Shown one piece after another: positions 36,567-44,637 of a stretch of DNA of 64,000 nucleotides. The number at the start of each line of letters is the position of its first letter. The first letter of the stretch is position 1. This DNA comes from a virus. The stretch lies in IMG/VR virus record IMGVR_UViG_3300045988_016718. The stretch is one strand, 5' to 3'. The notes below the pieces were generated by a model that was not told where the DNA came from, made no database searches, and saw nothing but the letters and a program-made list of their open reading frames with translations. The position numbers and the translations under genes were made by a program.

Positions 36567-37238
36567 TTAATACTCTTGATACCACTTGATAGTGATACCA
36601 TATTTACTTTTCAATTCCCTGTTAATATCAGTGAACAGTTTAGGGTTCATTTTAGTCTCTGTTCTTGCATTATATGCAGGATGAGGTACTTTAATCACTG
36701 TTCCTGTTTTAATATAAGGCTGAAATGTACCAGCCTGACTTCCAAATAATACATATATCAGACCGGGATTAGTTTCTGATATGTTCTTCAACAAACTGCT
36801 GATAAATGGTCTCCATAACATAGTATGACTACCAACCTTATTCATCTCTACAGTCAATGCTGAATTAATCATCAATATCCCTTGTCTTGCCCAACTTTCT
36901 AAGGTTTGGTCAAAGATAATGCTATTATGTGGAACCTCAAAGTTAACTGCTGCTTCTTTAACAACTTTTAAAGAAGGAGACAACCCATCCTCTGGTACAT
37001 CAGCCCTGTTGCCAAATAATATTCCTGTAGCCACATCCCTTTGTGGATATGGGTCTTGTCCTATAAATACTACTTTCAACTCATTATAAGGACATAAATC
37101 AAAGGCTCTGAATACATTTTCAGCTGCTGGACAGACTTTCTTTGAGCCATAAAGCCTGTTCATTGCATCAATAACTATATTCAGTTCCTTTTGATTTATG
37201 ACTCTTATCCAATCACCAAAGTATTCCTCTAGGCTCAT
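36567..37238 (-). CDS. uracil-DNA glycosylase (family 1-like)
   Basis: VVFIGQDPYPQRDVATGILFG aligns with the UNG motif GQDPYH...GL.FS. ILMINSALTV and VPHPAY (HPSP-like) are also present. Confidence 0.8.
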   Translation of the reverse strand: MSLEEYFGDWIRVINQKELNIVIDAMNRLYGSKKVCPAAENVFRAFDLCPYNELKVVFIGQDPYPQRDVATGILFGNRADVPEDGLSPSLKVVKEAAVNFEVPHNSIIFDQTLESWARQGILMINSALTVEMNKVGSHTMLWRPFISSLLKNISETNPGLIYVLFGSQAGTFQPYIKTGTVIKVPHPAYNARTETKMNPKLFTDINRELKSKYGITIKWYQEY

Positions 37239-38035
37239 ATCTTCATATATTCTCTCATAAGTCCAATGTTATCCTTTAGGAAACTATTGACTTCTTCATC
37301 ATTGAAGTGAGATAAATCAGGCATATCAGGTTTATGAATGAACCTATCACTTACATCAGCTACAATAATTTCAGGCATCTTCTTTACAAATTGAGTTCTT
37401 GGTCCATCAGGAAAGTTGAACTTATTAATCACTGAAGAAGTCATTGCACTAAGAGATGCCCCATGTGTTATTACAGTAGGTATGAGCTTCTTAAGGATAT
37501 TCTTCTCAACTGGTCCATCACCTGTAAACACTTTAGGACTGATATACATAACTGACTTTATGAGTTCAGGATAGTTGTTAGTTAAGTTATACTTGATAGT
37601 ATTTAATAACAGCAACTCCATTTGACTGTTGAATATGACACCAGCACCACCATAATATACAAGATCTGCATTAGTTGTTACTTTACATAACTTATAATGA
37701 GTAGATGTCTCAAGCATGGCTCTTATCATAGAATCTGATGTTCTTTTGGTCTGTTCCATGCCAACAAATAGAGGAGTGATATAACATTCAACAATCTCAT
37801 CTTCATGTCCAGCAGTAATCCTAAGGTCCCTATTACTAACAAGAATATCTTGAACCTCTCTTCTACAGAATACAGGAACTTCAACTTCATCACCTCTCAG
37901 GTCTACCTCAAAGAATCTTTGAAATACATTGTTACCATTGAAGTTAGTGATATCAGTGTCAATAGGTCTTGTGTATGAAGTATTTCTAGTAAAATCAAGA
38001 CTTGCTAGTACTGTTCTTTCATATATTCCTGCCAT
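37235..38035 (-). CDS. hypothetical protein translationally coupled to the E1-like gene
   Basis: 266-aa ORF. Its ATG shares one nucleotide with the E1-like stop (TAATG), and its own stop overlaps the UDG start (ATGA). No motif recognised. Confidence 0.55.
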   Translation of the reverse strand: MAGIYERTVLASLDFTRNTSYTRPIDTDITNFNGNNVFQRFFEVDLRGDEVEVPVFCRREVQDILVSNRDLRITAGHEDEIVECYITPLFVGMEQTKRTSDSMIRAMLETSTHYKLCKVTTNADLVYYGGAGVIFNSQMELLLLNTIKYNLTNNYPELIKSVMYISPKVFTGDGPVEKNILKKLIPTVITHGASLSAMTSSVINKFNFPDGPRTQFVKKMPEIIVADVSDRFIHKPDMPDLSHFNDEEVNSFLKDNIGLMREYMKI

Positions 38036-39363
38036 TACATTTCAACTTTAAAATACATTGTATCAGCTGCAAAGGAAGTGTAGAATGGCACATCTCTTGG
38101 CATAATAGGATTACACTCATTGGCTACAAAATTTACAAAGATGTTGACCATAAGTGATGCAATCATATTAGCCATGAATGTAGTCTGTTTATAACTACAT
38201 ACAGTAGCATCAGCAGCTGCATCACTAAATAACCACTCTCTTTGATACTGTTCCATTGCTCTTGTGTCATTACCTTGAATAGCCAAAACCTGTAACTCTT
38301 CTGCTGCAAGTCTACCATCAATAAGCAAGCATTTACCTCTTTCTTCTTCTGGTTTAGACATTACATGAGCACACCATTTACTAAATACAAGTTTCCTTGC
38401 AGCCATGTTATCAAATCCACAAATCATGATATCATCAACACCACTGGTTTCATCATAAAGCCTATTCATAGCAATAATACTATGATAGTCAGCATAATTA
38501 GCCACCATATCAGCAAGAGCATCAACCTTTGGATTGCCAATGTCACTTCTGCCATATAACTGACCTGACATATTGACAGCTTCAACAACATCATTGTCAT
38601 AGATAATAAGTCTTGCTGGTTTCATTCTAGCTAACAAGAAGCCAATATAACTACCAATACCACCAACACCAGCTAAGATAATGTTCTTAGTCTGTAGTTG
38701 TTCATACCATATTGCACCACTGAACCTTGTAGTGGTTTCATCAACTGCCAAAGACCCTGAGTTAAGAGGAATCTCAATATGATTAGCTAATGCAAAGGCT
38801 CTACCTTTAGCATCTGCTTCATCAAATCTTGTACTCCAATAGTTATTAACCCAAAACTCTTTCATGTTGTTACCTGCACCAGCGTTGTTCTCTTTAAGAA
38901 CAATTCTCCATACACCATTATTAGGTGCACTTGCATCACTTCTTTCACGACGATGAAGTGCTCTGTTTGCTTTTTGGATTATGTACCAAGTACCTGCTTC
39001 AATTCTCTTGATATATGTTTCAAGTTCTGTAGGTCTACCTTGTGGACTATAGCCACAACATACATAATCATTCTCATAACCTAAAGGTGGTTCTGGTTCT
39101 GGTGGAACTGGCAAAGGTTGTTCAGGCACAGCTACAGGTACAGGCTCAAGTTCAATTTCTCCATTAGCAGTCACTTCTTCCATAGCTGCTTGAAGTTGTT
39201 GCATTAACTCTATTGATTCAGGAGTTAATTCCACTTCAATACCATTAGGAGCACTAAGACTCTGTGCTATGGAAGACTCTGTGGATACTACTCCTTCAGT
39301 AATTTCACGAGTTATTATTCTTCTTAGCTGCTCAACAGCAGCATCTCTTATTTCTTCATTCAT
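38035..39363 (-). CDS. E1-like (ThiF/MoeB-fold) adenylyltransferase with a ~220-aa N-terminal extension
   Basis: NIILAGVGGIGSYIGFLLARM...IIYDNDVVEAVNMSGQLY...GNPKVDAL...GFDNMAARK reproduces the GxGxxG, acidic beta2 end, SNLNRQ-like, G.pKa and DN..aR motifs of E1/ThiF enzymes (nt 38641-38679 for GxGxxG). A Pro-rich linker (PVPVAVPEQPLPVPPEPEPP) precedes the domain. Confidence 0.8.
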   Translation of the reverse strand: MNEEIRDAAVEQLRRIITREITEGVVSTESSIAQSLSAPNGIEVELTPESIELMQQLQAAMEEVTANGEIELEPVPVAVPEQPLPVPPEPEPPLGYENDYVCCGYSPQGRPTELETYIKRIEAGTWYIIQKANRALHRRERSDASAPNNGVWRIVLKENNAGAGNNMKEFWVNNYWSTRFDEADAKGRAFALANHIEIPLNSGSLAVDETTTRFSGAIWYEQLQTKNIILAGVGGIGSYIGFLLARMKPARLIIYDNDVVEAVNMSGQLYGRSDIGNPKVDALADMVANYADYHSIIAMNRLYDETSGVDDIMICGFDNMAARKLVFSKWCAHVMSKPEEERGKCLLIDGRLAAEELQVLAIQGNDTRAMEQYQREWLFSDAAADATVCSYKQTTFMANMIASLMVNIFVNFVANECNPIMPRDVPFYTSFAADTMYFKVEM

Positions 39364-39374
39364 GTTTAAATCTC

Positions 39375-40670
39375 CTATAAAATATAATCATCAAGGAGCT
39401 TGATGTATAATTTAAGCCACACATTGGTAGGCAACTCCATAAGAGCATTTCTTACTTCATAAGCAAGAATAGCTATCATCTCTGTATCATCAAGCACATT
39501 AACCAATGTTTCATCTGTTGTATAATTGACAAGGAAATCAACATGATTTGATGCCCAATACTCAAACTCCTTAACAGAATCAAATCTGTCAGAGTAGAAC
39601 TTATCCATGCTGCCTGCCCACTTGTTGATATCTACCTTATTATCAACAGGAAGAATAATACTACCTGTGATAATCTGTTTAACCAGCCAGTCAATGACTT
39701 TAGCATCAGCCCTTACAACATTATAAGGGATAGCATAATCAGAAGCTTCAAATGGAAGCTCCTTTTGAGTTGGAGCAGCAGTTTCTTTAGCTTGTCCTTG
39801 AAAGGGATAACTAGATTTATGTTCTTCAAACTCTTTCTTAGGTTGACCAAACTGACTTGGGGGTACATAAGTTCCACCTGTTGCTGGTTTCCCAGTAGCA
39901 GCACCTACTGTTTGAAGTCCGGGGTATCTACTCTGATATGCACTGGTTCCATAGCTATTGTAACCACCATAAGTAGCACTGGGTGTATATACTTTCTTAG
40001 CTTTCTCTGCATCAATCTCTTTCATGCGAGCAAGCATTTCCTTCTCAACTTCATCAACAGGAACAGTCTCTTTCTGAATCTCAAGAGGGAACCATTCAAG
40101 ATACTCTTCTTCAGCTTCAAATTCATCAGTACCTTTGATTTCTCCTTCTTTCCAAGTAGGGTAAGTAAACTCTTCTTTCACCTGTTGTTTAGCCTTATAC
40201 CTTCTGGTAACTGCTGCACTATAAGTACCAGCATTGTTTACAATCAAAGACACAAAGTGTGCCATATCTTCACCCTCTTGACTTAATGTTCCTGTATCAG
40301 TTCCACTAAAGAAAGTAGCCATATTGTTATGACTATGAATAAGCCCTTGGAACACATCTTCACTAAGCAATTCAGGATGGTCAATCATATAACTTACTAT
40401 GTCAGGTGACACATTAAATTCAGTATAACCACCAGTTCCTTTGTCCATCTGAAAGATGTCCACACACTTGATAGTCAAAGGATTGTCTTTATCATTAAAA
40501 GCACCTTCAACTTGATAGAACAGTACTCCTGACCATTCTACTTGGCTAATGTGAGTACACAATAACCTGATTTTCTTTTCTACCTCTACAGGTATGATTA
40601 TTTTATAGGGTAAATCTGGTTTTCTTTTTATCAATTCCAGACTTGGCTTTTTTGCTGTTTCCATATTCAC
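39375..40670 (-). CDS. JAB/MPN (JAMM) metallopeptidase domain protein with a long C-terminal extension
   Basis: The JAMM motif is complete: SQVEWSG (Glu) followed by HSHNNMATFFSGTD (HxHx7SxxD), at nt 40296-40337. The C-terminal ~230 aa are low-complexity plus helical. Confidence 0.85.
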   Translation of the reverse strand: MNMETAKKPSLELIKRKPDLPYKIIIPVEVEKKIRLLCTHISQVEWSGVLFYQVEGAFNDKDNPLTIKCVDIFQMDKGTGGYTEFNVSPDIVSYMIDHPELLSEDVFQGLIHSHNNMATFFSGTDTGTLSQEGEDMAHFVSLIVNNAGTYSAAVTRRYKAKQQVKEEFTYPTWKEGEIKGTDEFEAEEEYLEWFPLEIQKETVPVDEVEKEMLARMKEIDAEKAKKVYTPSATYGGYNSYGTSAYQSRYPGLQTVGAATGKPATGGTYVPPSQFGQPKKEFEEHKSSYPFQGQAKETAAPTQKELPFEASDYAIPYNVVRADAKVIDWLVKQIITGSIILPVDNKVDINKWAGSMDKFYSDRFDSVKEFEYWASNHVDFLVNYTTDETLVNVLDDTEMIAILAYEVRNALMELPTNVWLKLYIKLLDDYIL

Positions 40671-41895
40671 AATTTAATAATTCTAATATTGCACAAACAT
40701 ACTCTCTTACTATATCTGTATTGAGTATTGTAGATGTATTTCTTACACCAGTTGCTAATCCATTGATTACAAGATTAACATCCTTGCCTTTAAAGGTTAA
40801 TACCTTCCTTCCTACATATTGACTATAGTCCCTACTTGCATTTGAATTAGGGTCAAATATAGCACCATTAGCTATGATAGCCTGTTTAAGCACACCATCA
40901 CCTTGAAGGTCATATAAAGCTGGCATATTTGGTGCTTTTCTATACTCATCATTATACCAGTCAATGAAAGCATTACTTATGGTCAACACAGTATCAGTGA
41001 ATGTATGAGCCAATCCATAGGAACCTTTTCTATAGTTGAACTTAAGTATGTTATTGGTAAACAAATAATCAAGGAACTTACTTGATAATTCCTTTGTGAA
41101 ATACTCCTTCGAGATATGATTGTTCTGTTCTATAGGAAAGTTATCCCTCTTGTTACTACCATTAGCACCAATATTCTCCATTCTTCTATAAGGACCACCA
41201 GTAAGCGATTCTGTACCCATATACCTTTCAAGTTCAAGACAGAATAACTGCCATATAGGTTCATCAAATCCTACTGTAAGACTGCTCATAGTATTATTGA
41301 TAGGACCACTACCAGTACATACACTTCTGAACTTAAATTCAAAGTCAATACCACTTACATGAGAGTGCATATAGTCAGACTGCATATGTACAACATCATA
41401 CTCTGACCTGTTCATTTTGAACCAGCCTTTGCCTTTACCTTCCCATGTTACAGGAACCTTTGCCCACAGATTATCAACTTCTACAGTTCTATCATATTCA
41501 TTCCTGATAGTCACATGAGGAAAATGTATTATAATAGGTATATCTATGAACCACCTATTCCCTATGAACTCTTTCATATAAGGAACAAATCTATCAAATA
41601 TTGCCACACTTTCAGTTACAGGATACCTGTGCATCGTATTCCTAAAATCTGAAATTATATCCTCATTATGATTGCTCCTCATATAAGAGCTGGTTGCAAA
41701 GGTGCTTGCACTGCCTCCTACTAAATCATACATAGAATATTCATTCAAGACACTAATAAAGTCTTCCAAGCTAATAGGCTGTAAATCAACTCTTTCCTCA
41801 CCATAGAAGTCATTGAATATCTCTGTAACTGCTCTTGGTAGTTCAAGCAACTCTCGATAGAGAGTCTCTACTTTCTGTTTTAATTCTTCATTCAT
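40603..41895 (-). CDS. hypothetical protein, first gene of the JAB/E1 sub-operon
   Basis: 430-aa ORF starting after a strong terminator and overlapping the JAB ORF by 68 nt. No motif recognised. Confidence 0.55.
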   Translation of the reverse strand: MNEELKQKVETLYRELLELPRAVTEIFNDFYGEERVDLQPISLEDFISVLNEYSMYDLVGGSASTFATSSYMRSNHNEDIISDFRNTMHRYPVTESVAIFDRFVPYMKEFIGNRWFIDIPIIIHFPHVTIRNEYDRTVEVDNLWAKVPVTWEGKGKGWFKMNRSEYDVVHMQSDYMHSHVSGIDFEFKFRSVCTGSGPINNTMSSLTVGFDEPIWQLFCLELERYMGTESLTGGPYRRMENIGANGSNKRDNFPIEQNNHISKEYFTKELSSKFLDYLFTNNILKFNYRKGSYGLAHTFTDTVLTISNAFIDWYNDEYRKAPNMPALYDLQGDGVLKQAIIANGAIFDPNSNASRDYSQYVGRKVLTFKGKDVNLVINGLATGVRNTSTILNTDIVREYVCAILELLNCEYGNSKKAKSGIDKKKTRFTL

Positions 41896-41911
41896 AACAA
41901 TTTAGTTACAA

Positions 41912-41950
41912 GAAAAAAAGAAGGAGAAGGCTTATACAGCTTTCTCCTTC
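41912..41950 (-). terminator. strong intrinsic terminator
   Basis: 13-bp stem gaaggagaaggct / agctttctccttc with a 5-nt loop. In minus sense it is followed by TTTTTTTCTT. Confidence 0.8.
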
Positions 41951-41957
41951 AAATTGT

Positions 41958-42668
41958 TTAACCTAAAACAAAGTCAAACATCTTATTTACTTCCTCTTTG
42001 GGCATCTTTTCAGATGCAGTGGCTTCTGTTGCACCGCCATTCAGAGTACTCATGACTTTATCATAAGTATCTTCCTCAATGGTGTCATTACCATACAAGT
42101 CCTCAACAAGGATTTTCAAAGCCTGTTCACAGTTACCTGATGCAGGTGCTGCTACTACTGCCGGAGCTTCAGGAGCTTCTTCTTTCTTAGTTTCAGCAAC
42201 TGGCTTCCTTGCAGCTTTCTTTGCTGTAGGAGCAGCTGCCGGAGCTTCAACTTTTGCTTCTTTTTTACCTTGTGATTCAATCAAGTCAATCAGGTCCTGA
42301 GTCTTGCACATAGTGAAGTTCTTGCCAAACTTTGCTACACAAGCAGCCTGCAAGCCATTAGCCTTGATTGCATCATAGGCTTCACTTCTTGTCATGGCAC
42401 CTGACTTGATTTTCTTTTCCGGAGCTGTCAACAGGAATGTCAAATCATTGACAATCTGACCTTTGTAAGGAATATTGGTAGGCAGTGGAGCTGCATCATC
42501 TTTCAATTCAGCTCTCATGTGACCTTCAAAGAAAGTCATACCTTCATAGTTGATGCCAAGTTCCCTCATTTCAGCCTTCAACTCACCAAGGTTAGTTGCA
42601 CTAGATGCCTGAATGATTGATTGTTTCTGAGTCTTGTTATTGATAATTGTTACTTTACGAGTTTCCAT
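41958..42668 (-). CDS. beta-grasp-like N-domain / SAP(HeH)-like / AKP-rich linker protein; probable abundant DNA-associated protein
   Basis: Residues 1-85 (KVTIINNKTQKQSIIQ..NLGELKAEMRELGI..MTFFEG..LTFLLTAP) read as a beta-beta-alpha-beta-beta pattern. They are followed by KIKSG, a helix-extended-helix segment (TRSEAYDAIKANGLQAACVAKFGKNF), and a histone-H1-like linker (KKEAKVEAPAAAPTAKKAARKPVAETKKEEAPEAP). The protein ends in ...FVLG. It is a monocistronic-looking unit with its own terminator. Confidence 0.4.
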   Translation of the reverse strand: METRKVTIINNKTQKQSIIQASSATNLGELKAEMRELGINYEGMTFFEGHMRAELKDDAAPLPTNIPYKGQIVNDLTFLLTAPEKKIKSGAMTRSEAYDAIKANGLQAACVAKFGKNFTMCKTQDLIDLIESQGKKEAKVEAPAAAPTAKKAARKPVAETKKEEAPEAPAVVAAPASGNCEQALKILVEDLYGNDTIEEDTYDKVMSTLNGGATEATASEKMPKEEVNKMFDFVLG

Positions 42669-42689: not shown

Positions 42690-43688
42690 TTACTTAAATA
42701 GACCTAAAATTATTTCTTTGAACAACTCTTTGTTCTGGAGCTGCTTGTAGAGGTCTGCTACATCTTTTGCCCCATTTATATTAGGTAAGATTAAGTTAGT
42801 GAATCCAGTAGACTCTGATAGTTTCTCTCCATCTTTGAGACCAGCTTCATCATTGTCCAGTAGTATATAGACCTCTCTATATCTCCTTCTTAATTCACTA
42901 ACTGCTGTTTCACTCATGCCATAGCCCTCACCTTGTATAGCTATAGCTGGAATGCCTGTATTAGCCCACAGACAAAGGGCATCCTTCATGCTTGCACAGA
43001 TACAGATTCTTGTACCAAACTCTGGTACTTTAGTCCATAAACTTATAACAGACCTATCATGCCTGTTACTCCATTTATATCCCTTAGTGTTGAATGGTTG
43101 GTATATCTTAAGTGTAATATTGCCTTCTTTTCTTTCAACATAGGCATAGGCATATTTGTCTGCCCCAAACACATACTCTTGACCATTCTTTATCACTATC
43201 TTATGACTTATAGGATATATATCAGCATAATCTAGCCATTCTAAGGTTATTCCAAAGGATTCCCAGAACTCTATATCATGCTTAGCCCAAGGTCTGACCT
43301 TGCACTTCAAGTCTATTGACTTTGGTTGTTTATGAAGTACCTTATCTGAATACTCTGTAGTTTTAACATTGAACACTGGATTGGTACTGGAGAAATTAGG
43401 TAAGTCCTCCCATACTCTGGTTAATACCTGTATGTAACTCACCCCCCAATATAAGCCAAGTAGGTCCCATAGACCCCCTCTATCTCTTGTTGCATAGTCT
43501 ACAAAGTGAACTCTTTTTCCATCAGATGAATATAAACCAAAAGAAGGTTTTCTATCTTGCCTTAATGGAGAGTTTATTATCACAGGTAGTTCACTAACAC
43601 CAAAATAGTGATTGAGTACATCAAATTCACTTACTTTATTGAGCAATTCTTCCAAGGTTACACTTGGCTTACCAGTACCAAAAGCCAT
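42690..43688 (-). CDS. DNA primase (TOPRIM domain)
   Basis: C-terminal AIQGEGYG ... VYILLDNDEAGLKDGEKL gives the TOPRIM Glu and DxD motifs. It sits next to the helicase, ATPase and SSB-like genes. Confidence 0.7.
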   Translation of the reverse strand: MAFGTGKPSVTLEELLNKVSEFDVLNHYFGVSELPVIINSPLRQDRKPSFGLYSSDGKRVHFVDYATRDRGGLWDLLGLYWGVSYIQVLTRVWEDLPNFSSTNPVFNVKTTEYSDKVLHKQPKSIDLKCKVRPWAKHDIEFWESFGITLEWLDYADIYPISHKIVIKNGQEYVFGADKYAYAYVERKEGNITLKIYQPFNTKGYKWSNRHDRSVISLWTKVPEFGTRICICASMKDALCLWANTGIPAIAIQGEGYGMSETAVSELRRRYREVYILLDNDEAGLKDGEKLSESTGFTNLILPNINGAKDVADLYKQLQNKELFKEIILGLFK

Positions 43689-43707: not shown

Positions 43708-44637
43708 TTATTTATTCCAAGCAGCCCAAGGTGCATTGGTAGGAGCTGATTTAGCACCAAGAGGGTCATTTGCAGGTGATGAGAAGTCTGTACTCTCAAC
43801 GGCATACTCCTTAATAGGTTCAGCAAGGAACTCTACAGTAGGATATGCACCGGCATTCTTTCTTGCCTGCAAGTCTTCATCAAGTTTTGAATAATCACTG
43901 ATGACATTCTTCAAGAACTTCTTTGTGTAAACTGCCTGATACTGATTGTTATCATCAGTAGTTCTTACACCAAACATAGCTTTCACCCTGTTGTTTGGTT
44001 GTAAGTTGATTACACTCTTAAGTTCACTGATATCACCTCTGAAATAAGACTCAATCTTGTCAAGTCTTGCTTCTGCATCAGCCAAGTTCTTGATGAACAC
44101 TGTTTCATCACCTTTCCTGTATGACTTGTTAGGGATATTCAAGAAAGCCTTGATGAAAGCAGTCAAATCTGATTCACCAATATAGGCAGGTCTCATACCT
44201 GATGTGTCATACCACTTCATGTTGTCAGGAATAGCTTCTGAACCATTGAGACAACCAATAGGTAAATAGGTGGATTCACCATACTTATTGATTACTTCAA
44301 CCTTGCTTCCATCCCTGTTGAAGTTCTGATGTTTGTTCAGGAAGAAAGTGATTTTATCAGTCAGTTCAACACCACATTTCTCTACATCAGTCTTAACAAT
44401 GAAGTCAATCCTAATCTGTGGTACTTTGATTCTGTTACCATCAGGTCCCACTTCACTTTCACCTACATAAACAGGAGCATCATCAAGTGTTCTGTTGAAC
44501 AGTTTCTCATACTCTGCCTTGTTAGGATTAACACCAATCACAAACACTGGTGCTACACCAATATACAGTTTTCTTACTCTGTCTTTGCTTTCTGAACCAG
44601 AAGCAAAAGCCATCATAGCTACACTTTTATTCTTCAT
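43708..44637 (-). CDS. putative ssDNA-binding / replication accessory protein
   Basis: 309-aa ORF between the primase and ATPase genes. The call is by position only; no motif recognised. Confidence 0.3.
   Translation of the reverse strand: MKNKSVAMMAFASGSESKDRVRKLYIGVAPVFVIGVNPNKAEYEKLFNRTLDDAPVYVGESEVGPDGNRIKVPQIRIDFIVKTDVEKCGVELTDKITFFLNKHQNFNRDGSKVEVINKYGESTYLPIGCLNGSEAIPDNMKWYDTSGMRPAYIGESDLTAFIKAFLNIPNKSYRKGDETVFIKNLADAEARLDKIESYFRGDISELKSVINLQPNNRVKAMFGVRTTDDNNQYQAVYTKKFLKNVISDYSKLDEDLQARKNAGAYPTVEFLAEPIKEYAVESTDFSSPANDPLGAKSAPTNAPWAAWNK

Follow-up and report, generated by a model that had tools for sequence, protein, structure and literature searches.

A probable ubiquitin-like processing and activation module in the replication block of crAss-like phages

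Here we describe a gene cassette of crAss-like phages which is probably a phage-encoded module for processing and activating a ubiquitin-like (Ubl) protein within the replication block, the Ubl being probably conjugated to proteins. The cassette was analyzed in a window of 64,000 nucleotides (IMG/VR virus record IMGVR_UViG_3300045988_016718) and comprises P1 (Ubl domain and tail), P2, a JAB/JAMM metallopeptidase, an E1-like adenylating enzyme and P5. Kits of Ubl, E1 and JAB are so far known mainly from bacteria, some of them as anti-phage defences; a large group of crAss-like phages carries its own Ubl, activating enzyme and trimming protease amid the genes of DNA replication.

The order P1-P2-JAB-E1(-P5), placed between primase and UDG, is kept in 153 of 169 sources (the window and 168 loci from gut, marine, freshwater and fish-pathogen phages), and the remaining arrangements are truncated or split loci. 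The cassette is present in crAss001 (gp79-gp75) and in Flavobacterium phage FpV4, and its hosts and habitats include Bacteroides, Flavobacterium, marine and freshwater. It is a core block, conserved in Steigviridae and in further crAss-like phages, and the E1-JAB pair is no oddity of this one genome. The literature search found no paper treating these genes as one Ubl system. In GenBank, gp76 of crAss001 is named 'thiamine biosynthesis protein ThiF' and gp77 'metalloprotease', and the ThiF name is given also to FpV4 gp50 and many others. A role in thiamine biosynthesis, as these product names and the generic ThiF Pfam match would have it, is hardly credible: the E1 scores under every ThiF equivalog cut-off, no Gly-Gly ThiS and no thiG, thiH, thiC or thiE lies nearby, and the label repeats the name of the Pfam family and reflects no tested function.

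The positions of the features are collected in Table 1. The five ORFs, the overlaps and the terminator described in the earlier note are all borne out by the ORF coordinates and by the junctions, which were read directly. The genes of P2 and JAB overlap by 68 nt, a gap of 11 nt separates JAB from E1 (TAG GAGATTTAAAC ATG), TAATG is common to E1 and P5, and ATGA to P5 and UDG; the genes are thereby coupled in translation. Directly 3′ of the P1 gene, on the coding strand, the terminator consists of a G+C-rich hairpin of 13 bp followed by TTTTTTT; an equivalent hairpin and T-run was found after P1 in 7 of 9 diverse phages.

Table 1. Features of the cassette and its context genes (positions in the 64,000-nucleotide window)
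Feature	Position	Strand	Remark
UDG, family-1 uracil-DNA glycosylase	36567..37238	-	context gene; translationally coupled to P5
P5 (266 aa)	37235..38035	-	fast-evolving; always next after E1
E1-like adenylating enzyme (442 aa)	38035..39363	-	residues 205-442 conserved adenylation domain; 1-204 lineage-specific extension
E1 Cys389	38197..38199	-	motif C-[ST]-[YM]-K-Q-T; candidate thioester/persulfide cysteine; translation checked
JAB/JAMM metallopeptidase (431 aa)	39375..40670	-	MPN+ domain about 35-170, then low-complexity linker and conserved C-terminal domain
JAMM zinc motif H112-S-H114-NNMATFF-S122-GT-D125	40296..40337	-	translation checked
P2 (430 aa)	40603..41895	-	conserved family without recognised fold; candidate partner for the post-E1 step
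P2 motif M176-H-S-H179 ... C193-T	41314..41370	-	conserved; translation checked
Intrinsic terminator	41909..41950	-	13-bp hairpin and T7, between P1 and P2
P1 (236 aa), whole ORF	41958..42668	-	Ubl domain and tail
P1 residues 1-90, ubiquitin-like beta-grasp ending K85-K-I-K-S89-G90	42399..42668	-	AlphaFold2 model, Foldseek
P1 S89-G90/A91, predicted JAB cut site and future E1-activated C-terminus	42396..42404	-	translation checked; conservation
P1 residues 91-236, variable dispensable tail	41958..42398	-	AlphaFold2 model, comparison among phages
DnaG/Toprim-type primase	42690..43688	-	context gene immediately upstream of P1

The first 85 residues of P1, which had been read from the letters as a beta-grasp, were checked by structure prediction and do model as one. 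In the AlphaFold2 model, strands lie at 4-10, 15-22, 45-48, 66-68, 71-73 and 76-81 and a helix at 27-36, with pLDDT of 82-91 over the beta-grasp region; the model was built on an alignment of little diversity (38 sequences with 39-89% identity to the query). The best 50 Foldseek matches in the PDB are almost all ubiquitin, SUMO, ISG15, UBX and DIX (probability about 1.0, E 1.5e-3 to 1e-2, TM (target) 0.5-0.7), and in BFVD the orthologues come first, followed by giant-virus and baculovirus ubiquitins. The Foldseek E-values of this beta-grasp are modest, 1.5e-3 and weaker. The N-terminal profile of P1 reaches 5526 clusters at E <= 1e-3.

The sequence KKIKSGA and the C-terminal FVLG are both present in P1 as the earlier note had it, and they fared differently as candidate ends of the Ubl. 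KIKSG is supported as the functional end of the domain: G90 is kept in 138 and S89 in 135 of the 142 unique homologues, and in four divergent phages (L115, L117, L126 and L127) the P1 ORF holds only the Ubl and stops 1-5 residues past the Gly, ending KSGK, KSGE, KSGNKN and KSGNEKKH respectively, with the P2 gene directly after it. A pLDDT below 50 at residues 87-89 indicates a flexible linker exactly at KSG. In cr106_1 (L016) and L084 a free-standing HNH homing-endonuclease gene splits P1 exactly at SG/A, and since no group I intron is detectable at these insertion sites, Ubl and tail function there as two polypeptides. Precursors of Ubl proteins such as UFM1 (VG-SC) or SUMO likewise carry an extension past the terminal Gly. 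The C-terminal Gly of P1 itself is coincidental; the last residue is not conserved among 239 homologues (K in 82, H in 68, I in 27, G in 20, N in 19, others in the rest).

The tail consists, in the AlphaFold2 model, of a three-helix domain (94-135), a disordered K/E/A/P linker (136-178) and a helical hairpin (180-209), and finishes in an acidic-hydrophobic E-[IV]-[DN]-x-M-F. It is missing in the four Ubl-only phages, is K/A-rich in L121, and forms its own ORF in L016 and L084.

The 431-aa protein is a JAB/JAMM peptidase, as its intact motif (E45 ... H112-S-H114-x7-S122-x2-D125) had suggested. Taken alone, the window protein scores 16.4 bits on Prok-JAB, for which Pfam requires 25, but all 8 of 8 diverse homologues match Prok-JAB (best E 5.4e-5). 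Among 142 unique relatives, gathered via the E1 gene and not via JAB, 141-142 retain the five catalytic residues.

The identity of the 442-aa protein as an E1/ThiF enzyme stands (Pfam ThiF PF00899, 66.2 bits against a cut-off of 28.1, E 3e-18, residues 220-417), while the earlier claim that it has all the nucleotide-site motifs does not: the Arg of N-x-x-R-Q is Gly in 148 of 150 homologues, so that the ATP chemistry could differ from that of canonical E1 enzymes. R213, G232/234/235, D256, D258, N264, Q268, K279, D318, R323 and C389 are kept in at least 147 of the 150. Cys389 is found in all 150, an invariance which is partly by construction, as the loci were retrieved with either of two patterns, one of which was the motif around this Cys. 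The N-terminal extension is absent from FpV4 and Dulem41 and variable in others, and the smallest phage E1s have 228 aa. Profile comparison with the PDB gives UBA5 as the best match (2.5e-12), with MccB (5e-12), PaaA (1.2e-11) and TcdA (5e-10 to 4e-9) near it and also MoeB and ThiF. If the E1 were of the MccB/PaaA/TcdA kind, its substrate would be a peptide, a nucleotide or a tRNA base, and P1 would be a replication protein in which the beta-grasp has no more than a structural or adaptor role; the missing Arg and the tail of P1, which with its K/A-rich linker and acidic-hydrophobic end resembles a DNA or replisome binder, are in keeping with this reading. We consider such non-Ubl adenylation very improbable, because these matches span the shared Rossmann half only, the minimal phage E1s have no peptide-clamp or RRE domain, and it would leave unexplained why the Gly that closes the domain is near-invariant, why standalone Ubl genes end there and why the linkage to a JAMM peptidase is strict.

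The two remaining proteins are conserved and match no known family. H179, C193 and G195 of P2 do not vary among 145 unique relatives; S178 occurs in 144 of these, R163 and Y175 each in 143. The family comprises 2276 clusters at 50% identity (E <= 1e-3). No match to P2 was obtained in Pfam, NCBIfam, PADLOC or PDB profile searches, nor by Foldseek with an AlphaFold2 model that is poor (pLDDT below 50 over the conserved core 155-262), and hhalign gave it a probability of 0.1% for the UBC E2 family and 0.2% for the JAB family. The P5 profile detects P5 in 120 of 169 sources, and iterative search links 125 of the 151 unique ORFs downstream of E1, a position always occupied by some ORF; searches including Pfam, NCBIfam, PDB profile and hhalign returned no family for it. 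That no E2 was recognised in the 430-aa and 266-aa proteins agrees with our family (Pfam, NCBIfam, PADLOC), PDB profile and hhalign searches, which detected no E2/UBC-like protein either.

The undetectable E2, together with one invariant Cys each in P2 and E1, would also suit a sulfur-carrier pathway of the ThiS/MoaD/TtuB/QbsE type, which we regard as unlikely. The JAB would trim the Ubl, the E1 would adenylate Gly90, a persulfide on E1 Cys389 or P2 Cys193, fed by a host cysteine desulfurase, would give the thiocarboxylate, and P2 would use this to thiolate some nucleotide, tRNA or cofactor that is required while replication is under way. There are precedents for a JAB that trims a sulfur carrier (QbsD/QbsE) and for one that removes a C-terminal adduct (Mec+/CysO), and the cassette lies among the nucleotide-metabolism genes UDG and RNR. 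Cassettes of JAB, E1 and ThiS/MoaD-like proteins for sulfur assimilation have been described (PMC1779556). The top NCBIfam scores of the E1 are for ThiS-adenylyltransferase ThiF models (62.5 and 55.4 bits), but these are far under the family cut-offs (159 and 152 bits), and no rhodanese, cysteine desulfurase or PP-loop thiolase domain was found in the cassette. Moreover, known sulfur carriers end in Gly-Gly whereas the phage Ubl ends in Ser-Gly, its top structural neighbours in the PDB are ubiquitin, SUMO and ISG15 and not ThiS or MoaD, and no report of a thiolated base in the DNA of crAss-like phages is known to us.

Conjugation of the Ubl to proteins, which we prefer, may proceed as follows. 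P1 would be a precursor produced in excess, with the terminator behind it attenuating read-through into the enzyme genes. The JAMM peptidase is predicted to cut P1 after Gly90 (KKIKSG/A), giving a Ubl of about 90 residues with a free C-terminal Gly, and the variable tail. The minimal E1, probably a homodimer, would bind the beta-grasp and adenylate Gly90 with ATP, and the activated Ubl would probably pass to E1 Cys389, as a thioester, and/or to P2 with its invariant His179 and Cys193. Covalent attachment to phage or host target proteins during DNA replication would be the end result; the JAB may also take the Ubl off again. Against this reading speak the E2 that no search recovered, the Gly in place of the canonical E1 Arg, and the end of the Ubl in Ser-Gly instead of Gly-Gly.

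Relations to PRTRC, CBASS, Bil or Bub, which the earlier note had brought in, did not hold at any membership threshold tested. PRTRC_A scores 14.2 bits (cut-off 101.8) and PRTRC_ThiF 31.3 bits (cut-off 144.75), PRTRC B to F gave no matches and no ParB lies nearby; CBASS, Bil, Bub and ThiF/ThiS failed every threshold likewise, and the PADLOC and NCBIfam matches to CBASS and Bil are limited to the Rossmann segment of the E1. Bacterial systems of Ubl, E1 and JAB act as anti-phage defences (PMC11601596), and the phage JAB might strip the conjugates (Ubl or CD-NTase) of host Bil, Bub or type II CBASS, or Ubl and E1 might act as decoys which jam the host machinery. Counter-defence of this kind would fit the fast evolution of P5, like that of arms-race genes, and the matches of PADLOC E1-E2 (Cap2) models to the E1 (up to 37 bits), but the latter are confined to its generic nucleotide-binding segment. 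It is quite improbable, as a simple deconjugase has no need of its own Ubl precursor and E1, and the four-gene core keeps its place in the replication module in phages whose hosts and habitats differ widely, which is not typical of accessory anti-defence genes.

Among known systems, PRTRC (ParB-related, ThiF-related) resembles the cassette in combining a JAB (PRTRC_A), a ThiF-like E1 and a small Ubl on a mobile element. Type II CBASS (Cap2/Cap3) and Bil (BilA-D) share an E1 and a JAB acting on the C-terminal Gly/Ala of a substrate or Ubl, but the phage E1 has no fused or adjacent E2 domain, the cassette has no CD-NTase, and in place of the tandem IAD-AAD-CYS arrangement of BilD the phage E1 has just one adenylation domain, about 230 aa long. 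Archaeal SAMP/UbaA/HvJAMM1 and Thermus TtuB/TtuC combine, like the phage cassette, a Ubl and a JAMM peptidase with just one minimal E1, no E2 (or, in those systems, E3) being recognisable, and they achieve protein conjugation as well as sulfur transfer. The phage E1, however, reaches 29 bits on the UbaA model (cut-off 450), SAMPs carry no fused tail and have Gly-Gly as their end, and P2 and P5 are extra in the phage cassette. UFM1 is like the phage Ubl in its single C-terminal Gly, exposed by removal of a short extension (VG-SC), and UBA5, a minimal E1 that works as a homodimer, is the best solved-structure match of the phage E1; the alignment is limited to the nucleotide-binding half, no homologue of UFC1 (E2) or UFL1 is detectable in the cassette, and the processing enzyme is a JAMM metallopeptidase whereas that of UFM1 is the cysteine protease UfSP.

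A phage-encoded Ubl, fused through a linker to a C-terminal domain, is found also in tail-assembly protein I of lambda/T1, where the JAB domain of the adjacent tail protein K is predicted to cut at the last Gly of the Ubl and so set it free (Iyer, Burroughs, Aravind 2006, PMC1779556); an E1 is absent from that pair, which belongs to the tail-assembly module, whereas the cassette of the podovirus-like crAss phages includes one and is part of the replication module. Type I Bub (6E.1; BubAB, BubCD, BubE; Ye et al. 2024, PMC11601596) differs in being encoded in a defence island and not in a phage replication module, in joining JAB and E1 in one polypeptide (BubCD) instead of two genes, in fusing its Ubl to an E2 and not to a helical and disordered tail, and in having a DUF6527 serine protease, which is not present in the phage cassette. 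BubCD has no invariant Cys like that of the phage E1, which matches it at only E 1e-4 in the Rossmann part. What the two systems share is a Ubl at the N-terminus of a fusion protein, adjacent JAB and E1 functions, and a minimal, ThiF/UBA5-like E1 which is homodimeric (probably so in the phage). Experimentally, the JAB domain of BubCD cuts the Ubl-E2 fusion BubAB just past a conserved Gly, which the E1 domain then uses (PMC11601596), and the same cut and use are predicted for the phage Ubl.

The window belongs to a crAss-like phage whose closest cultured relatives are Kehishuvirus/crAss001 (~50-69% amino acid identity) and DAC15, both members of the Steigviridae. We rate the five-gene cassette studied here as a phage-borne, replication-linked system made of a ubiquitin-like protein (Ubl), a JAB metallopeptidase and an E1-like enzyme, with a predicted cleavable Ubl-tail precursor (P1) and two uncharacterised conserved partners (P2 and P5). 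The cassette is flanked by genes for primase, UDG and nucleases. All five ORFs lie on the minus strand with exactly the coordinates which the earlier note gave, and the same is true of the gene junctions, i.e. the 68-nt overlap of P2 and JAB, the 11-nt gap between JAB and E1 and the TAATG common to E1 and P5; an ATGA common to P5 and UDG was read directly. The terminator reported next to P1 was also recovered as a 13-bp hairpin followed by T7, lying 3' of P1 on the coding strand. It is present in 7 of the 9 phages compared and fits a substrate which is produced in excess of its enzymes.

Positions of the cassette genes, their neighbours and other features in the window and in related loci (L-numbers)
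Feature	Source	Position	Strand	Remark
P1	window	41958-42668	-	236 aa
P2	window	40603-41895	-	430 aa
JAB	window	39375-40670	-	431 aa
E1	window	38035-39363	-	442 aa
P5	window	37235-38035	-	266 aa
Toprim primase	window	42690-43688	-	upstream of P1
Family-1 UDG	window	36567-37238	-	downstream of P5
P1 C-terminus	window	41961-42020		acidic-hydrophobic motif
JAB C-terminal domain	window	39375-39770		residues ~300-431
E1 N-terminal extension	window	38752-39363		residues 1-204
E1 Gly267 codon	window	38563-38565
Protein without family match	window	43708-44637		309 aa, upstream of primase
Positional counterpart of the 309-aa protein	L127	1644-2453
tRNA-Arg(CCT)	window	60575-60647	-	sole tRNA gene
HNH endonuclease gene within P1	L016 (cr106_1)	2026-2541
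HNH endonuclease gene within P1	L084	2254-2766
Split UDG gene	L084	7478-9240		63 aa + 164 aa
Group I intron in UDG insert	L084	8469-8712		85 bits
JAB-interrupting insert	L126	3636-5951
JAB-interrupting insert	L134
JAB-interrupting insert	L154	4752-5054		group I intron, 87 bits
JAB-interrupting insert	L162	1727-1939		group I intron, 70 bits
JAB-interrupting insert	L163

For the survey of gene linkage 160 related viral loci were fetched, the five families were called with profile HMMs, and the count was made over 169 sources (the window and 168 loci). The order P1-P2-JAB-E1 is retained in 153 of the 169, with P5 detected in 110 of those 153, and the sources without this order are truncated or split loci. 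The location is the replication module in every case. In crAss001 the block is gp79-gp75, flanked by primase gp80 and UDG gp74, and the same placement is seen in DAC15, bajarodcaudo virus 1, Dulem virus 41, the cr-phages and Flavobacterium phage FpV4. A counter-defence role of the cassette fits poorly with such deep conservation in a replication module, and we regard it as highly improbable. The search in cells, done with two exact peptide patterns which distant cellular relatives would escape, found the E1 clade in only 6 MAG contigs (L169-L174) among 185,579 species genomes; judged by these sequences the clade appears essentially phage-restricted. A cellular origin, or cellular copies, of the cassette was rejected, as in this exact-pattern search the six contigs are probably mis-binned phage. 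Their taxon labels are Acholeplasmatales, Clostridium, Bacilli, Alistipes and Spirochaetia, and one contig of 94,451 bp has the size of a crAss genome.

Some other features of the window were recorded. It carries a single tRNA gene, and the sign of its GC skew flips near 12 kb, at the change-over between its two gene blocks of divergent orientation. For the 309-aa protein encoded upstream of the primase no family was matched; the protein at the corresponding position in a divergent phage ends in AEDDIPF, the classic C-terminal tip of SSB, and the window protein is therefore probably the single-stranded-DNA-binding protein of the phage.

The beta-grasp fold of the P1 N-terminus, on which the conjugation proposal had been made to depend, was obtained from AlphaFold2 and Foldseek. 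The AlphaFold2 model of P1 has a mean pLDDT of 72, and its residues 1-82 form a confident beta-beta-alpha-beta...beta domain (pLDDT 82-91), with a low-confidence hinge falling exactly at K-S-G (87-89); in the tail a domain of three helices (94-135) precedes a disordered K/E/A/P linker, after which come a helical hairpin and a last helix. The Foldseek matches in PDB are almost all ubiquitin, SUMO, ISG15, UBX and DIX (probability ~1.0, E from 1.5e-3, target TM 0.5-0.7), and in BFVD the ubiquitins of giant viruses and baculoviruses rank next after the orthologues. Residues K85, S89 and G90 are invariant across nine phages with identity down to 24%, KKI[KR]SGA is present in 234 of 239 database homologues, and of the 142 unique homologues encoded in the retrieved loci 138 retain G90. 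The KIKSG following the beta-grasp, which had been singled out in the earlier note, is thus a conserved element. The glycine at the very C-terminus of P1 (...FVLG), also pointed out there, is not conserved among the homologues, and it was discarded as a substrate of E1, the final residue varying freely.

Comparison of the loci indicates that it is the Ubl up to its final Gly which is conserved as a unit and that the part downstream of it is dispensable, because the Ubl occurs as a standalone ORF, P1 is split by an HNH gene and the tail is replaced elsewhere. In four divergent phages (L115, L117, L126 and L127) the beta-grasp is alone in an ORF of 77-83 aa with P2 directly after it, and these ORFs end in KSGK, KSGE, KSGNKN and KSGNEKKH, i.e. 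with the stop 1-5 residues past the Gly; they show the anatomy of a Ubl precursor having a short C-terminal extension. In other loci the tail is exchanged for unrelated sequence, which in L121, for example, is K/A-rich. In cr106_1 and L084 a free-standing HNH homing-endonuclease gene (NUMOD4 + HNH_3 + NUMOD1) sits exactly between SG and A, so that the Ubl (ending SGKF or SGIC before the stop) and the tail have an ORF each. A group I intron, whose splicing would rejoin the two parts, was rejected as the cause of this split, as Rfam gave no hit with the cut-off relaxed to E <= 1; the endonuclease ORF is flanked by just 1 nt and ~20 nt, which leaves no room for an intron core, and at other places in these loci Rfam readily finds group I introns. 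The UDG gene beside the cassette is itself split in L084, by an insert with a 284-aa ORF and a group I intron. The C-terminus of P1 carries a conserved acidic-hydrophobic motif, E-[IV]-[DN]-x-M-F-(D-F), preceded by the disordered K/E/A/P linker. It resembles the C-terminal interaction tips of replication proteins such as SSB, and by this analogy the end of the tail may tether the precursor to the replisome.

The metallopeptidase JAB keeps its zinc/catalytic residues E45, H112, H114, S122 and D125 (E ... H-x-H-x7-S-x2-D) in 141-142 of 142 unique relatives, which were collected via the E1 gene and not via JAB. The window protein scores 16.4 bits against Pfam Prok-JAB (PF14464), below the gathering threshold of 25; Prok-JAB is matched by all of 8 diverse homologues, with a best E of 5.4e-5. 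The top PDB profile matches are CSN5, archaeal JAMM1 and Rpn11-like proteins at E 0.06-1.3, aligned on the zinc motif. At its C-terminal end JAB has a conserved domain of ~110 residues (IPY ... GS ... Y..RF ... LP.N ... YI), which is preceded by a low-complexity Y/G/P-rich linker and for which no matching family was found. Several related phages have an insert of ~1 kb in the JAB gene that parts H-x-H from x7-S-x2-D of the JAMM motif, and Rfam recognised group I introns in two of these inserts. The most conserved active-site codons of the gene are a target of mobile introns.

The E1-like enzyme matches Pfam ThiF (PF00899) over residues 220-417 with 66.2 bits (gathering threshold 28.1), and its relatives score 58-76 bits. 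Against the specific NCBIfam models (ThiF, MoeB, PRTRC ThiF, UbaA, TcdA and Cap2-like) it stays far under each cut-off. When a profile of nine diverse homologues was searched against solved structures, UBA5 was best (E 2.5e-12), followed by MccB, PaaA, TcdA, MoeB, ThiF and Uba1 and then by Cap2 and BubCD, all matches being confined to the nucleotide-binding half. Because of these sub-cut-off scores and half-length matches, its sequence places E1 in a distinct clade of minimal E1-like enzymes. The conserved core is one domain of ~230 aa (228 aa in FpV4, 235 aa in Dulem41). The earlier note had credited E1 with all the ThiF/E1 nucleotide-site motifs. This holds for G232/234/235, D256, D258, N264, Q268, K279, D318 and R323, kept in at least 149 of 150 homologues, and fails for the Arg of N-x-x-R-Q: the motif reads N-[ML]-[SGA]-G-Q, with Gly267 in place of Arg in 148 of 150. 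The replaced residue is the phosphate-binding Arg of UBA5 and MoeB, and presumably either another group must supply the phosphate contact or the chemistry differs. Adenylation chemistry not acting on the Ubl at all would leave the conserved terminal Gly unexplained, and we give it very little weight. Cys389 lies in C-[ST]-[YM]-K-Q-T and is invariant, partly by construction, as this motif helped to pick the loci. The N-terminal extension of E1 is proline-rich and lineage-specific; it is missing in FpV4 and Dulem41, and both its length (0 to ~250 aa) and its sequence vary among genera. The N-terminal 205 residues were rejected as a Cap2-like fused E2, since homologues, near and remote alike, either lack the extension or have an unrelated one.

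The P2 family comprises 2276 clusters at 50% identity. All of the 145 relatives compared have H179, C193 and G195, and S178, R163, Y175 and P235 are almost invariant. No match to P2 was found in Pfam, NCBIfam, PADLOC or the PDB sequences, and PHROGs gave only a family of 'unknown function'. The AlphaFold2 core of P2 has a pLDDT <50 exactly over the conserved region, and because the model is unreliable there the Foldseek outcome is meaningless. The earlier note had recognised no E2-like motif in P2 or P5, in agreement with the present searches: Pfam, NCBIfam and PADLOC gave no E2 match for either, and hhalign against UBC E2 gave probabilities of 0.1% (P2) and 0.03% (P5). P2 as a UBC-type E2, with YMHSH ... 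C resembling HPN ... C, found no support from Pfam, PDB profile search or hhalign. The idea that P2 is a degenerate second MPN domain with the H-S-H of JAB was put to hhalign, which aligned only 9 columns (probability 0.2%), and P5 as an E2 or as a relative of P2 gave no signal. Some ORF is always present 3' of E1, and iterative search ties 125 of 151 such ORFs to P5. In one environmental clade (L128-L131, L139, L140 and L147) P2 is 570-695 aa long instead of ~400 aa; no Pfam family matches the added stretch, and no additional domains were found in the unusually long variants of P2, E1 and P5.

Conjugation by the archaeal SAMP/UbaA system is independent of an E2. E2-less systems of the ThiS/MoaD type are known, as is JAB trimming of sulfur carriers, and the cassette could be read as a sulfur carrier of this kind; we consider this unlikely, since it is without a sulfur-transfer domain and its Ubl ends in Ser-Gly, not in the Gly-Gly of ThiS. 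The reading that we favour, and hold to be reasonably probable, is a module for processing and activation of the Ubl. JAB would cleave P1 after Gly90 (KKIKSG/A, the slash marking the cut), E1 would adenylate this Gly90, and the Ubl would be handed on, possibly via Cys389 of E1 and Cys193 of P2, most likely to proteins. More tentatively, crAss-like phages may run their own complete Ubl-conjugation pathway, in which P2 would be a new non-UBC carrier/ligase (His179, Cys193) passing the activated Ubl from the minimal E1 to proteins of the replisome or the host while the phage DNA is being replicated.

In GenBank the two recognisable genes are labelled 'thiamine biosynthesis protein ThiF' and 'metalloprotease domain containing protein', or recently 'E1 enzyme family protein', and the Ubl, P2 and P5 are 'hypothetical'. 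The thiamine name is merely transferred, and thiamine synthesis has practically no chance of being the function. Within an incomplete coverage of the literature, no paper was found which treats these genes as a Ubl system, and none in which ThiF, PRTRC or more than a passing reference to ubiquitin goes together with crAss, crAss001 or Crassvirales; the genes do not appear in the main text of either Shkoporov 2018 or Yutin 2021. The proposed pathway merges five 'hypothetical', 'thiamine biosynthesis' and 'metalloprotease' annotations into one testable scheme with a defined predicted cleavage site, an activated residue and catalytic residues to mutate, and its predictions are directly testable because crAss001 and its host are culturable. 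The cassette is strictly conserved in a clade to which two gut phages in culture, crAss001 and DAC15, belong along with phages of fish pathogens and numerous environmental relatives, and P2, with no known relative, is a candidate for a new enzyme class acting after an E1. Prokaryotic Ubl conjugation has recently emerged as an anti-phage weapon (Bil, Bub, CBASS Cap2/Cap3), and here the toolkit is that of the phage. A full conjugation pathway, if true, would within the searches made give bacterial viruses their first Ubl conjugation system, a mirror image of these bacterial defences.

The kinship with PRTRC, CBASS, Bil and Bub systems which had been suggested did not hold, and the cassette falls outside each of them as well as outside ThiF/ThiS. 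For PRTRC the scores are 14.2 against 101.8 bits (PRTRC_A) and 31.3 against 144.75 bits (PRTRC_ThiF), the other PRTRC models (B-F) gave no match, and no ParB homologue was found among the neighbours. The ThiF equivalog models give E1 62.5 against 159, 55.4 against 152.2 and 43.1 against 275 bits, and no thi genes lie nearby. A type II CBASS consists of an E2-E1 fusion with a CD-NTase and an effector, whereas the phage cassette stands among replication and repair genes, and the PADLOC E1-E2 models cover only residues ~210-350 of E1 with at most 37 bits. The cassette does not qualify as Bil; PADLOC gave no hits for the proteins besides E1, and the phage E1 core is a single domain. Type I Bub has a Ubl-E2 fusion and a JAB-E1 fusion, whereas the tail of P1 is helical and disordered and not UBC-like, and JAB and E1 of the phage are separate ORFs; the DUF6527 protease of Type I Bub has no match in the cassette, and the match between BubCD and E1 (E 1e-4) is confined to the Rossmann part. 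A predicted precedent for processing is also given by the Ubl and JAB pair of lambda tail assembly (PMC1779556). In Type I Bub the JAB domain of BubCD has been shown by experiment to cut the Ubl-E2 fusion BubAB directly behind a conserved Gly, which the E1 domain subsequently binds for adenylation (PMC11601596). Since Type I Bub does both, the cleavage and adenylation steps proposed for the phage cassette have a direct experimental precedent, and the processing logic of the two systems is alike.
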